Sequence record: MW822011
Length of the DNA: 64,000 bases
Direction: 5' to 3' (one strand)
Origin: Shigella phage TB004
The position numbers and the translations under genes are program-made. Below, piece after piece: positions 19,428-21,243 of this stretch (its first letter is position 1; every line of letters begins with the position of its first letter). Below the pieces are notes generated by a model. That model was not told the origin of the DNA. It searched no databases and was given only the letters and a program-made list of their open reading frames with translations.

Positions 19428-20042
19428 ATGAAAATGAAAATGCAAAGTGATTTCAATTCAATGTTTGAAGAGTTCCAAAGACAGGTTGATGTTCCAGACC
19501 AATTACTAAATGCTCTTAAACGTATGGCAGAAGGACGTAATTATTATTGGGGTTCTTCATATGAAACTGATGAAAGTCTTTCTGGAAGATTTTCCAGAGG
19601 TAAAAAGTCTTTAATACGTCCTGGAATACTTATTAACAATATTGAATCAATTCATTTATTGACATGTGATTTTGATGTTGAATTTACTGATTTCATTTCT
19701 CCTGAATGGACAGTTTGTTATTTAAACGACGATTTTGATTATCTCGGTGTTTATAGTTTAAGTGACGCATGGTTTAAACGTAACTTACAAAAGTCAAATT
19801 TATTCTATATTGATACTACAGTAAAATTTCAGGGAAAGAAATATTTCTTTACTCTTATAGTTGATTCTGAAACGAAGCATGAAAATAAACGTATTCTTAG
19901 TAAAAGAAATATCTTGAATATTGTTGATGATCTTTTTGATAAATTAGTGGAAAATCCTAATTTTGAAAGTGATTTATTACTAGAAAAATTTGTTAAGGAA
20001 TGTAGAGAATATGTCAAAGCCATCACTATACCTTCCAAGTAA
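19428..20042 (+). CDS. hypothetical protein (204 aa), C-terminal KFVKECREYVK
   Basis: ATG with GGAG RBS. Confidence 0.5.
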   Translation: MKMKMQSDFNSMFEEFQRQVDVPDQLLNALKRMAEGRNYYWGSSYETDESLSGRFSRGKKSLIRPGILINNIESIHLLTCDFDVEFTDFISPEWTVCYLNDDFDYLGVYSLSDAWFKRNLQKSNLFYIDTTVKFQGKKYFFTLIVDSETKHENKRILSKRNILNIVDDLFDKLVENPNFESDLLLEKFVKECREYVKAITIPSK

Positions 20043-20403
20043 ACCTGTGAAGTATGAACTAAAGCGTCAGCTAATTCCTACTGATGTATTAATAGGTCCT
20101 GTGACAGCTATATCATTTGTAATTCTATTGATTGTTGGAATGGTTATAGACTTTATGACTGATATTGAATCTGGCGTAATATTTTTGTTAGTATTAATTC
20201 TTCCATTAGTAGTTCCATTTTTATTGGTACCTGTAAATTGGGTAGGATATTGGTATCAAGGAAGGCATTATCGTAAACGTGTACGTGAATGGAAAGCTCA
20301 GTGTAAAAAGATTGAAAAGGAACACCGGCTTAAACTCGCTGCGTATGAATTTGACGAAATTATGAAATTTGTTAAGGAATCACGATGCAAAAGCCAAAAC
20401 TAA
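20011..20403 (+). CDS. small two-TM membrane protein, paralog 1
   Basis: Two hydrophobic helices; C-terminal KFVKESRCK. Confidence 0.5.
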   Translation: MSKPSLYLPSKPVKYELKRQLIPTDVLIGPVTAISFVILLIVGMVIDFMTDIESGVIFLLVLILPLVVPFLLVPVNWVGYWYQGRHYRKRVREWKAQCKKIEKEHRLKLAAYEFDEIMKFVKESRCKSQN

Positions 20404-20759
20404 ATAAAGTCAAATATTCGCTTCCTGAGTCATTTTTAATTTTTGCTGTGGCGTTGGCTGCAGCTCTTGCCGGTAGTCTTATTGGATTAATGATTGACTG
20501 TATTATTTTAAACATCCGCAGTAACGTCAGCGGTATAGTAGATATAATAGAAGTTTGGAGTGAACTTCATTATACTATAGCAATTTCATTATTTTCATTC
20601 TTTAGCATCATTTTATATTTTCATTATGATAATTTTAAAATAAATTGGCAAAGAAAAAAGGATTACAAAATACAATTAAAAGAATATAATAACTACATGT
20701 CTTATATTGAAAATGAATCAATGAAAGAGTTTGTGAGTGATTGTAGGAAAATCAAATGA
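20385..20759 (+). CDS. small two-TM membrane protein, paralog 2
   Basis: Two hydrophobic helices; C-terminal EFVSDCRKIK. Confidence 0.5.
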   Translation: MQKPKLNKVKYSLPESFLIFAVALAAALAGSLIGLMIDCIILNIRSNVSGIVDIIEVWSELHYTIAISLFSFFSIILYFHYDNFKINWQRKKDYKIQLKEYNNYMSYIENESMKEFVSDCRKIK

Positions 20760-20874
20760 TTTTAAAAACTCGCTGGTATGATTTAGATGATGGGGACGAT
20801 GGCATTTCAGTCGATAGAGTTGACTGGAGCGGCTGTTCCGAAGATATGAAAATTTGCTGATTAGGGAGTTTAGA

Positions 20875-21239
20875 ATGGGATATCAACCAGTTAAGCCATC
20901 TACTGCAACAGATGATAAATTCGTGTGTATTCGAAACGGCCGCGCTAAATTAACGAACGCTGATTGGTTTACAGGCAAGAATATGCTTCTATGGTATATC
21001 ATTAGTCTTCCTGTGTCATCATTCGTATTTTATTTCTTTGGAAAAAATCCAATGGATAGAATAGGAGATTGGGCTCTTTTTACTCTGCTTGTTAATATTT
21101 TTATAACAGCAATACTATCAGGAATATGGTGCGTGTTCATTGAAATGCCATGGCGGTTACGTAGACAGCAAAAGATTTTTGATGAAAAGAAATATACTCA
21201 AAATTTAAATAATTTTATCACCGAATGCAGGAAATTAAA

Positions 21240-21243
<4 letters not shown>
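20875..21243 (+). CDS. small two-TM membrane protein, paralog 3
   Basis: Two hydrophobic helices; C-terminal [10 protein letters not shown]. Confidence 0.5.

Follow-up and report, generated by a model that had tools for sequence, protein, structure and literature searches.

The e.5-e.4-e.3-e.2 array

In a 64,000-nucleotide stretch of DNA from Shigella phage TB004 (sequence record MW822011; the whole stretch is referred to here as the window), four consecutive open reading frames (ORFs) between positions 19428 and 21243 encode proteins that all end in F-[VI]-x-[ED]-[CS]-R, each no more than 11 residues from the stop codon. The DNA encoding this motif forms part of a short repeated element at the gene junctions, the junction cassette, which is the subject of this study. 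The window belongs to a Tequatrovirus: the 1.8-kb array region matches 504 phage records at approximately 90-96% identity, with EP01 as the best match, and the gene order is that of the T4 interval e.6-e.5-e.4-e.3-e.2-nudE-e. Judged by sequence and order, the four ORFs are the T4 genes e.5, e.4, e.3 and e.2. All features described below lie on the plus strand unless stated otherwise.

By family profile, the four proteins belong to phrog_2607, phrog_2604, phrog_2330 and phrog_2203, respectively. The e.5 homologue (19428..20042; phrog_2607, E 7e-109; Pfam PF26876, Phage_T4_Y06P) is a predicted soluble protein of 200-204 aa without a transmembrane (TM) segment, with start candidates at 19428, 19434 and 19440. 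Its C-terminus, LLLEKFVKECREYVKAITIPSK, consists of the cassette motif and an 11-residue extension. The e.4 homologue (20011..20403, 130 aa; phrog_2604, E 2e-70; PF26873, Phage_T4_Y06O) has, from its hydropathy, a basic N-terminus (M-S-K-P-S-L), TM segments at residues ~26-46 and ~56-76, a basic tail and the motif, ending in EIMKFVKESRCKSQN. The e.3 homologue (20385..20759, 124 aa; phrog_2330, E 4e-62; supported by homologues and hydropathy) has the N-terminus M-Q-K-P-K-L, TM segments at ~17-37 and ~61-81, a basic tail and the motif, ending in ESMKEFVSDCRKIK. The fourth ORF represents the 3' part of e.2, a gene that encodes 162 aa in its intact homologues. In the window, this gene is divided into an N-terminal fragment of 34 aa (20756..20860), which matches positions 1-32 of phrog_2203 and was recognized by alignment with EP01, U115 and T4, and an ORF of 122 aa, e.2C (20875..21243), which corresponds to residues 41-162 of intact e.2 and to positions 47-166 of phrog_2203 (E 7e-54; PF26896, Phage_T4_Y06M). 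The e.2C protein has TM segments at ~37-55 and ~71-89, a basic tail and the motif. The TTG starts listed for the second and fourth ORFs were rejected as wrong; the true starts are ATG 20011 and ATG 20875.

Hydropathy thus gives e.4, e.3 and e.2C one architecture: a K/R-rich N-terminus, two hydrophobic helices with an acidic loop between them, and a K/R-rich tail of 33-57 residues. An earlier reading of the bare sequence (the first-pass annotation) had already noticed a common plan in three members, with a short N-terminus, two TM helices and a basic tail. Because both ends are K/R-rich, the positive-inside rule predicts an N-in, C-in topology. The databases keep the array proteins as four separate families without assigned function (the Pfam entries being precomputed ones of newer releases), and neither the shared C-terminal motif nor the junction cassette is recorded there.

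Junction cassettes

Across the six frames of the window, which contain 547 stop-to-stop segments of 40 aa or more, the pattern F[VI].[ED][CS][RK] has five matches, and four of the five are these consecutive genes. At all four junctions, the Shine-Dalgarno (SD) sequence of the downstream gene lies inside the upstream ORF, and the downstream start codon overlaps or abuts the upstream stop codon. Both observations bear out the first-pass annotation, which had proposed a common C-terminal motif in four consecutive proteins and an overlap of its DNA with the ribosome-binding site (RBS) and start of the next gene. The starts of e.4 (ATG 20011) and e.3 (ATG 20385) are nested within e.5 and e.4, respectively, at 20756 and 21240 the stop and start codons overlap in the sequence ATGA, and the genes overlap by 4, 19 or 32 nt.

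Five copies of the cassette were read. Cassette 1 (e.5>e.4, 19989..20013) is TTT GTT AAG GAA TGT AGA GAA T-ATG, in which the codons for F-V-K-E-C-R contain the SD sequence AAGGA and lead to the e.4 start. Cassette 2 (e.4>e.3, 20368..20387), TTT GTT AAG GAA TCA CG-ATG, likewise carries AAGGA and the e.3 start, and its first 13 nt fall within an exact 16-nt repeat, AAATTTGTTAAGGAAT, found at 19986 and 20365 (20365-20380 for the second copy; spacing 379 nt), that is, at both of these junctions. The likeness of these two junctions extends over approximately 40 nt and includes the M-x-K-P-x-L N-termini. In cassette 3 (e.3>e.2, 20730..20759), TTT GTG AGT GAT TGT AGG AAA ATC AA-ATGA, the SD sequence of the K-E codons is gone and a new one, AGGAAA, is built from the Arg codon and two added codons. 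Cassette 4 (20857..20877), CTG ATT AGG GAG TTT AGA ATG, lies in frame inside intact e.2, where it encodes L-I-R-E-F-R-M and combines the SD sequence GGGAG with a conserved internal start. Cassette 5 (e.2>nudE, 21214..21243), TTT ATC ACC GAA TGC AGG AAA TTA AA-ATGA, again has the SD sequence AGGAAA, followed by the nudE start at 21240. The ancestral cassette probably read TTT ATT AAG GAA TGT AGA AAA TGA.

The first-pass annotation had also regarded the junction cassette as the repeated unit, and had named as the alternative a likeness produced by the RBS consensus alone. The extended pattern TTNRTYRRGGAR occurs in the 64 kb at two of these junctions only, and the hexamers that precede the window's 26 RAGGAR-N5-10-ATG sites are unrelated, so the likeness exceeds an RBS consensus; the cassette is moreover kept in five genera (see below) and has a fifth copy inside e.2. 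Folding of the RNA at the five junctions was no better than that of shuffled sequences (z -1.35 to +1.36), and an Rfam search of the junction RNAs gave no family matches. Two further resemblances were rejected. A 19-nt likeness between the e.2 and nudE starts was judged to be noise in A+T-rich DNA, and the match of F-I-T-E in the e.2 tail to the capsid-targeting leader MKTYQEFITE of an internal-protein-like gene at 22958, being of four residues and at the opposite end of the protein, was judged coincidental.

Conservation in other phages

Orthologues were compared from Mosigvirus JK42, Gaprivervirus VR7, Dhakavirus/Gaprivervirus-like genomes in IMG/VR and Kanagawavirus PEi20, which together with Tequatrovirus represent five genera of the Tevenvirinae. 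The motif ends every e.5, e.4, e.3 and e.2 orthologue read, mostly as F-I-K-E-C-R-K-stop or F-I-E-E-C-R-K-stop, and the underlying DNA is TTT ATT AAG/GAG GAA TGY MGN AAA TGA, in which the stop codon and the next gene's ATG overlap. Between genera, the motif is the best-conserved 9-residue window of each family, except in e.2, where it comes second after the internal copy; mean column identity is 0.54-0.74 in the motif window and 0.24-0.31 overall. The best-conserved window of e.2 reads L-L-I-[REK]-E-[FY]-[RKN]-M-G. The internal e.2 cassette takes forms such as TTA ATT GAG GAA TAT AAA ATG, in frame and without a stop codon, and is kept in all genera that have e.2; its Met is the exact start of the 122-aa ORF.

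The gene order is kept in Tequatrovirus and Mosigvirus, and some of the genes also occur in Gaprivervirus, Dhakavirus-like and Kanagawavirus phages. Strict cassette patterns were found in T-even-type contigs of IMG/VR only at the ends of e.2 and e.3, and a degenerate search of IMG/VR gave 11 T-even loci and four unrelated contigs in which the string is a plain strong RBS. A search for e.3 homologues found only relatives of at least 69% identity, and e.4 had six matches among 1.84 billion representatives. The array families are confined to T-even-like phages, and their profiles are consequently shallow.

Other arrangements were seen at the corresponding loci. In Mosigvirus and Gaprivervirus (L005, 3231-4025, JK42; L006, 4081-5340, minus strand, VR7), the e.3 cassette is followed immediately by a second tandem family of proteins of 65-100 aa that end in W-V-S-S-S-x-x-C-stop. 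At the junctions of this family, the TAA stop codon mostly lies within TAAGGAA (once TAAGGTG), with ATG after another 5-6 nt. Since its codons vary synonymously, this motif is conserved at the protein level. At locus L015 (2754-3338), a predicted soluble protein of 178 aa occupies the e.5 position; it ends in R-F-I-A-E-C-R-E-Y-A-K-E-V-R-N-V, and its relationship to e.5 is only weak (hhalign P 5e-5 over 26 columns). An e.3-like gene comes immediately after it. The e.2 proteins of Dhakavirus/Gaprivervirus-like phages (L013 and L016 versus L008-L012, L015 and L017) combine one N-terminal domain with either of two TM/tail modules, one of the T4-like IEMPWRLRRQQ type and one of the IEVPFRISKVKK type, which amounts to mosaicism within the gene.

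Constraint on the cassette as protein and as RNA

At position 3 the motif has K, E or R, residues of opposite charges, and the corresponding codons AAG, GAG and AGG all retain RGGAR at 7-9 nt from the ATG. That this position varies while RGGAR stays indicates a constraint at the RNA level, on the RBS. The T4-type e.3 and e.2 genes, which have S-D or T-E in place of K-E, use the rare Arg codon AGG and two extra codons, by which AGGAAA is restored 7 nt before ATGA. In the opposite direction, the residues F, I/V, E/D, C and R are retained where the SD sequence has moved or weakened, as in e.3 and e.2 of T4, in e.5 of JK42 (ATGGAA) and in the e.5-like gene of L015 (SD sequence 20 nt downstream), and they are encoded by varying codons: five for Arg (AGA, AGG, CGT, CGC and CGA) and both for Cys (TGT and TGC). 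This persistence of the residues with synonymous codons, even where the SD sequence has moved, indicates a constraint at the protein level. The Cys of e.4 (R-C-K) is itself forced by the overlapping e.3 start (cgATGc). From these comparisons, the cassette appears to be constrained both as protein and as RNA.

The motif residues and the preceding L/I/M fall on one helix face. AlphaFold2 (AF2) models place the e.5 motif in the last helix, at residues 183-198, and join TM2 and the tail of e.2 into one long helix, with low confidence in both cases (predicted local distance difference test, pLDDT, 63 and 50).

Frameshifts and the probable internal start of e.2

The division of e.2 in the window is caused by one A missing from the run at 20849-20852, which leaves the 34-aa ORF and the 122-aa ORF, the latter starting at ATG 20875 behind a good SD sequence. 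This deletion was found in none of the 311 phage records matching the stretch, and may be either a private mutation of the isolate or a homopolymer sequencing error. The T4 reference has another A-run frameshift, which results in an e.2 protein of 102 aa, and lineage L033 has an extra G within the internal SD sequence, which results in ORFs of 39 and 122 aa. The intact 162-aa e.2 is the dominant form. The frameshifts in the window and in L033 are independent of each other, and both separate the N-terminal part (e.2N) from an intact e.2C that starts at the internal ATG. The internal start of e.2 is, on its sequence context and conservation, a probable one. For annotation, these cases mean that e.2 is often split or truncated by homopolymer frameshifts, the T4 reference included.

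Relationships among the membrane proteins

Among the four proteins, BLASTP gave a result only for e.3 and e.2 (E 0.003, in the last 15 aa). Profile comparison with hhalign aligned e.3 and e.4 over their full length (117 columns, probability 88%, P 3e-6; reversed control 0.06), e.2 and e.3 over the last 21 residues only (P 2e-5), and e.5 with each of the other three over 9-10 motif columns only; the e.2 and e.4 profiles gave no significant alignment. After trimming of the 8 N-terminal and 12-14 C-terminal residues, none of the core alignments was significant: e.3/e.4 gave P 0.02, and e.2 did no better than the reversed controls. Hydropathy-preserving shuffles, with the last 14 aa removed, gave Z scores of -0.7 to 2.5. 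Detectable likeness is thus confined to the two junction-proximal ends, with the motif at the C-terminus and, at the N-terminus, M-x-K-P-x-L, whose codons lie where the gene overlaps the upstream tail. TM1 of e.4 and TM1 of e.2C have PVT..SFV / TCCTGTGACA in common.

Given the common architecture and the PVT..SFV of TM1 in e.4 and e.2C, duplication is the simplest history, which we consider rather likely for e.3 and e.4 and somewhat less so for e.2C. The earlier designation of the three as two-TM paralogs is supported in architecture only: a full-length profile alignment was obtained just for e.3 and e.4, and no significant similarity is left once the ends are removed. The further suggestion of a locally amplifying family finds no support: the genes are old, their order is kept, and the changes seen are loss, fusion and frameshift. 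Comparison of the genomes indicates that the array is old and eroding, not amplifying.

Natural variants and recombination

Perhaps one in ten Tequatrovirus records lacks e.2, as estimated from match listings. In the three e.2-less phages that were read (RB33, PST and Pu-Krd-SF6), e.3 is joined straight to nudE through a hybrid cassette, GATTGYAGGAAATTAAAATGAAAAC, the 5' half of which is of the e.3 type and the 3' half of the e.2 type, and e.3 then ends in C-R-K-L-K. The two parental cassettes are identical at 17 of 21 positions, and the hybrid sequence points to loss of e.2 by a crossover inside the two cassettes. The e.3 gene of RB33 has a frameshift in an 11-A run of its basic juxtamembrane stretch (L032, ~3712-3722) and is annotated as 98 aa; it is intact in PST and Pu-Krd-SF6.

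Five genomes of the OP555981 type have, in place of e.4-e.3-e.2, a 106-aa e.4::e.2C chimera, joined at the common TCCTGTGACA in TM1, in which two TM helices and the tail are kept. The ATGA of the e.3 cassette provides the start of other genes in Mosigvirus and Gaprivervirus, where e.2 is found at a distance of kilobases. The UvsX recombinase of T4 is able to join identities of 3-4 nt (PMC8262927), and deletion events at the cassettes are thus mechanistically ordinary; what is special about crossovers in cassettes is that both survivors stay expressible. Two metagenomic variants of e.4 were also found (P0113/P0115): one of them, of 69 aa, lacks both TM helices, and the other has its 36 N-terminal residues fused to an unrelated helix-turn-helix-like sequence, which may be an assembly chimera.

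Flanking features, expression and function

Upstream of the array lies an e.6 homologue (18793..19386, 197 aa; phrog_1203, E 9e-86; T4 annotation), which has no cassette. It is preceded by a sigma-70-type promoter candidate resembling T4 early promoters (18723..18751; TTTACA-17-TATAAT, 11 of 12 matches), which is the likely start of an e.6-e.5-e.4-e.3-e.2-nudE transcript. Directly 5' of this candidate, at 18495-18722, a 75-aa homologue of Pfam Phage_FRD3 takes the place of T4 e.8/e.7. Between e.6 and e.5 lies a G+C-rich hairpin, GGGGCTTCGGCCC (19389..19409), which a terminator scan flags on the minus strand; it has no T tract on the plus strand, and is a possible attenuator or RNA-stability element. 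The first gene past the array is nudE (e.1; 21240..21680), which encodes a Nudix hydrolase (Pfam NUDIX, E 2e-12). Different records place its start at 21225 or 21240; only 21240 has an SD sequence (AGGAAA, 7 nt upstream).

In T4, the mRNAs of e.2-e.6 are classed as early, the proteins of e.2-e.5 have all been detected by mass spectrometry, and those of e.4 and e.5 appear early (PMC9697503, supplements). A T4 mutant record (clone T4_583L) lacks e.2-e.7. Local searches of Pfam, NCBIfam and PADLOC with the four proteins found no informative family, and in PHROGs each protein matches only its own family, annotated as of unknown function or generically as a membrane protein. Among the models for defence and superinfection exclusion in PADLOC, Pfam and PHROG, the sole match was to a 4TM effector model (E 0.03), and no holin family was matched in Pfam, PHROGs or NCBIfam. 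The first-pass annotation had mentioned exclusion and lysis timing as frequent roles of small phage membrane proteins in such arrays; none of the matches in Pfam, NCBIfam, PADLOC or PHROGs hints at either. A literature search by gene or UniProt name found nothing on function. GenBank records name homologues of e.3, e.4 and e.2 'sulfurtransferase', 'DNA primase', 'holin', 'antitoxin' or 'msp4', none of which is supported by a profile search. Our best guess is that the proteins are accessory, directed at the host envelope or at host defence, and individually redundant.

Proposed origin and role of the cassette

We consider it probable that a cassette with a dual role, as C-terminal peptide and as initiation region of the next gene, was copied along the e.5-e.4-e.3-e.2 block. 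The block would be an early, dispensable operon for one soluble protein and three small inner-membrane proteins with cytoplasmic, basic, helical tails, in which a cassette of ~21-30 nt stands at every gene end and at one site inside e.2. In the upstream reading frame, the cassette would encode the last part of an amphipathic C-terminal helix, [LIM]-x-x-F-[IV]-x-[ED]-C-[RK]; as mRNA, it would provide an unstructured initiation region consisting of an A/U-rich leader, the SD sequence AAGGA, a spacer of 7-9 nt and an ATG placed either before the stop codon of the upstream gene or overlapping it. Because of this double constraint, the cassettes would be the slowest-evolving part of each gene, which would be why four proteins that are otherwise unalignable end alike. 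It is most likely that one copy arose from another by tandem duplication, and since the RBS is located in the 3' end of the upstream gene, the duplicated unit would have had to include that end. As a side effect, the cassettes would act as short direct repeats, at which crossovers drop whole genes, with the remaining ones still in frame and the gene that follows still provided with an RBS. The anatomy, conservation and codon patterns of the cassettes, the natural deletions and chimeras and the expression of the T4 orthologues are observations; that the genes are translationally coupled, that e.2 is also read from its internal start, how the copies arose by duplication and what the proteins do are inferences.

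Several points weigh against this interpretation. Outside the junction-proximal ends, e.4, e.3 and e.2C are not significantly similar, so that duplication of whole genes is unproven, and both AF2 models bearing on the predicted helix have the low confidence noted above. Since similar strings serve as plain RBSs in four unrelated contigs, part of the cassette likeness is a convergent RBS signal. T4 deletes at very short identities anywhere, and the deletions at cassettes may reflect survivorship and not a property of the cassette. Coupling and internal initiation rest on sequence anatomy, and the lack of significant RNA structure at the junctions means that coupling through an unmasked RBS is not indicated; the RBSs may act independently. 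Finally, why e.2C, as the last copy, and the small e.2N module also have the motif does not follow from a model of offset duplication by itself.

The same observations can be arranged differently. The cassette could be a mobile element embedded in coding sequence, a portable adapter by which recombination inserts and excises expression-ready modules, in which case the flanked genes (e.5, e.4, e.3, e.2N and e.2C) need not be related. The intervening genes indeed have no detectable homology outside the cassette, e.5 and e.2N do not encode TM proteins, e.2 is excised precisely with a hybrid cassette left behind, unrelated genes in Mosigvirus and Gaprivervirus use the ATGA of the e.3 cassette as their start, and at L015 an e.5-like gene is followed by e.3 directly; the PeSLs (promoter early stem-loops) of T4-type phages provide a precedent for the same logic (PMC2839356, PMC4122927). 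The copies are, however, only ~21-30 nt long and ~80% alike, far shorter than PeSLs, the strict patterns in T-even-type contigs of IMG/VR stand at e.2 and e.3 ends only, and the gene order is stable across Tequatrovirus and Mosigvirus. One architecture in three of the flanked genes follows more simply from duplication, and no insertion, as distinct from deletion, was identified. We think a mobile cassette unlikely. The same holds for its fuller form, a coding-embedded counterpart of the PeSL, in which a portable adapter of ~25 nt would combine a C-terminal docking helix common to the proteins, the RBS and start of whichever gene comes next and a recombination site at which T-even phages insert, excise and fuse small accessory genes in frame and ready to be expressed, and e.2 would be a captured two-gene fusion that still makes its short product from the internal cassette.

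Explanations that keep only one of the two roles appear weaker still. If the element were purely a protein motif, its helix being a docking or oligomerisation element (one that tethers e.5 to the membrane proteins, for example, or binds a single host target) and the SD sequence incidental, it would be understandable that the motif stays when the SD sequence moves, that its Arg and Cys codons vary synonymously, that the L-x-x-F-I-x-x-C spacing fits one helix face of tails predicted to be helical, and that all four proteins are expressed in T4. Yet position 3 flips its charge among K, E and R while the nucleotides keep RGGAR, the internal copy is the best-conserved part of e.2 without being C-terminal, e.4 has no Cys at the motif position, and single members are lost in viable phages, so an obligate complex is unlikely; we regard this explanation as improbable. 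Convergence on a strong T-even RBS consensus that happens to be read in one frame would agree with the 26 sites in the window that share the common AAGGA-N7-9-ATG arrangement, with TAAGGAA in the neighbouring WVSSS family and with the near-identical plain RBSs of the four unrelated contigs. It is nevertheless very improbable as the whole explanation, considering that conservation extends to the upstream TTT RTT and to the codons for Cys and Arg, that no other RBS in the 64 kb has the extended pattern, that the amino-acid motif survives relocation of the SD sequence, and that the e.5>e.4 and e.4>e.3 junctions are alike over ~40 nt. A role in lysis timing is suggested by the resemblance of two-TM, N-in/C-in proteins with charged tails to class II holins, which have a similar topology and charged tail; the array proteins would then be relatives of these holins or of antiholins, their genes lie close to the lysozyme gene e, and one GenBank record names an e.2 homologue 'holin'. 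This we find hardly credible: the searches matched no holin family, the mRNAs are early, as are the e.4 and e.5 proteins, T4 lysis depends on holin t, and the genes are deleted in the T4 mutant record and lost in natural phages.

In the interpretation that we favour, one short DNA element, selected both as a peptide and as an RBS, would have been copied along an operon and frozen through the history of the enterobacterial T-even phages. For genes without assigned function, the probable internal e.2 start, the predicted conserved cytoplasmic helix with its one Cys, the natural e.2 knock-outs and the chimeras offer experimental handles.

Comparison with known systems

Like Imm, the superinfection immunity protein of T4, the array proteins are small, early and dispensable and have predicted TM helices, whereas a sequence relationship to any Pfam, NCBIfam or PADLOC family is lacking and the proteins are not known to cause exclusion. 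T4 has genes with in-frame internal initiation and nested shorter products, and e.2 resembles these in having a conserved SD sequence and ATG 40 codons into the gene, from which a product of 122 aa, with the size and architecture of e.3 and e.4, would be made; in contrast to those genes, the putative short form of e.2 is supported by conservation and by two natural frameshift variants in which e.2C stays open. Translational coupling is a general feature of bacterial and phage operons, and the cassettes share with it an SD sequence in the last upstream codons, stop/start overlaps and gene ends that are more conserved than the gene bodies. Ordinary coupled junctions are not alike beyond the SD sequence, whereas at the five described here an extended sequence and a peptide motif recur throughout five genera.

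The closest known concept is the PeSL, and the cassette works partly like one without being one. The PeSLs of T4-type phages are intergenic repeats of promoter, stem-loop, SD sequence and ATG at the borders of ORFan indels, and recombination between them yields chimeric copies (Arbiol et al. 2010, PMC2839356; Comeau et al. 2014, PMC4122927). They differ from the cassette in being intergenic, ~50-70 nt long and equipped with an early promoter and a stem-loop, whereas the cassette lies inside coding sequence and encodes a conserved peptide; PeSLs serve transcription and the cassette serves translation. A promoter scan found none at cassettes 1, 2 and 4 and weak minus-strand hits (9 of 12) near cassettes 3 and 5, at 20713-20686 just 5' of the former and at 21276-21248 just 3' of the latter, with a total within the shuffle expectation; the sole strong site is the candidate at 18723-18751 in front of e.6. 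Feature by feature, the cassette thus lacks the promoter and the stem-loop of a PeSL and has the SD sequence with start codon and the repeat-bounded indels. Both are short conserved repeats at gene boundaries in variable regions, both end in the downstream SD sequence and start, and at both, crossovers delete genes and leave one chimeric copy, as seen here in RB33, PST and Pu-Krd-SF6. The junction cassettes of the e.5-e.2 block would extend the idea of boundary repeats in the variable regions of T4-type phages from intergenic promoter cassettes to coding sequence.

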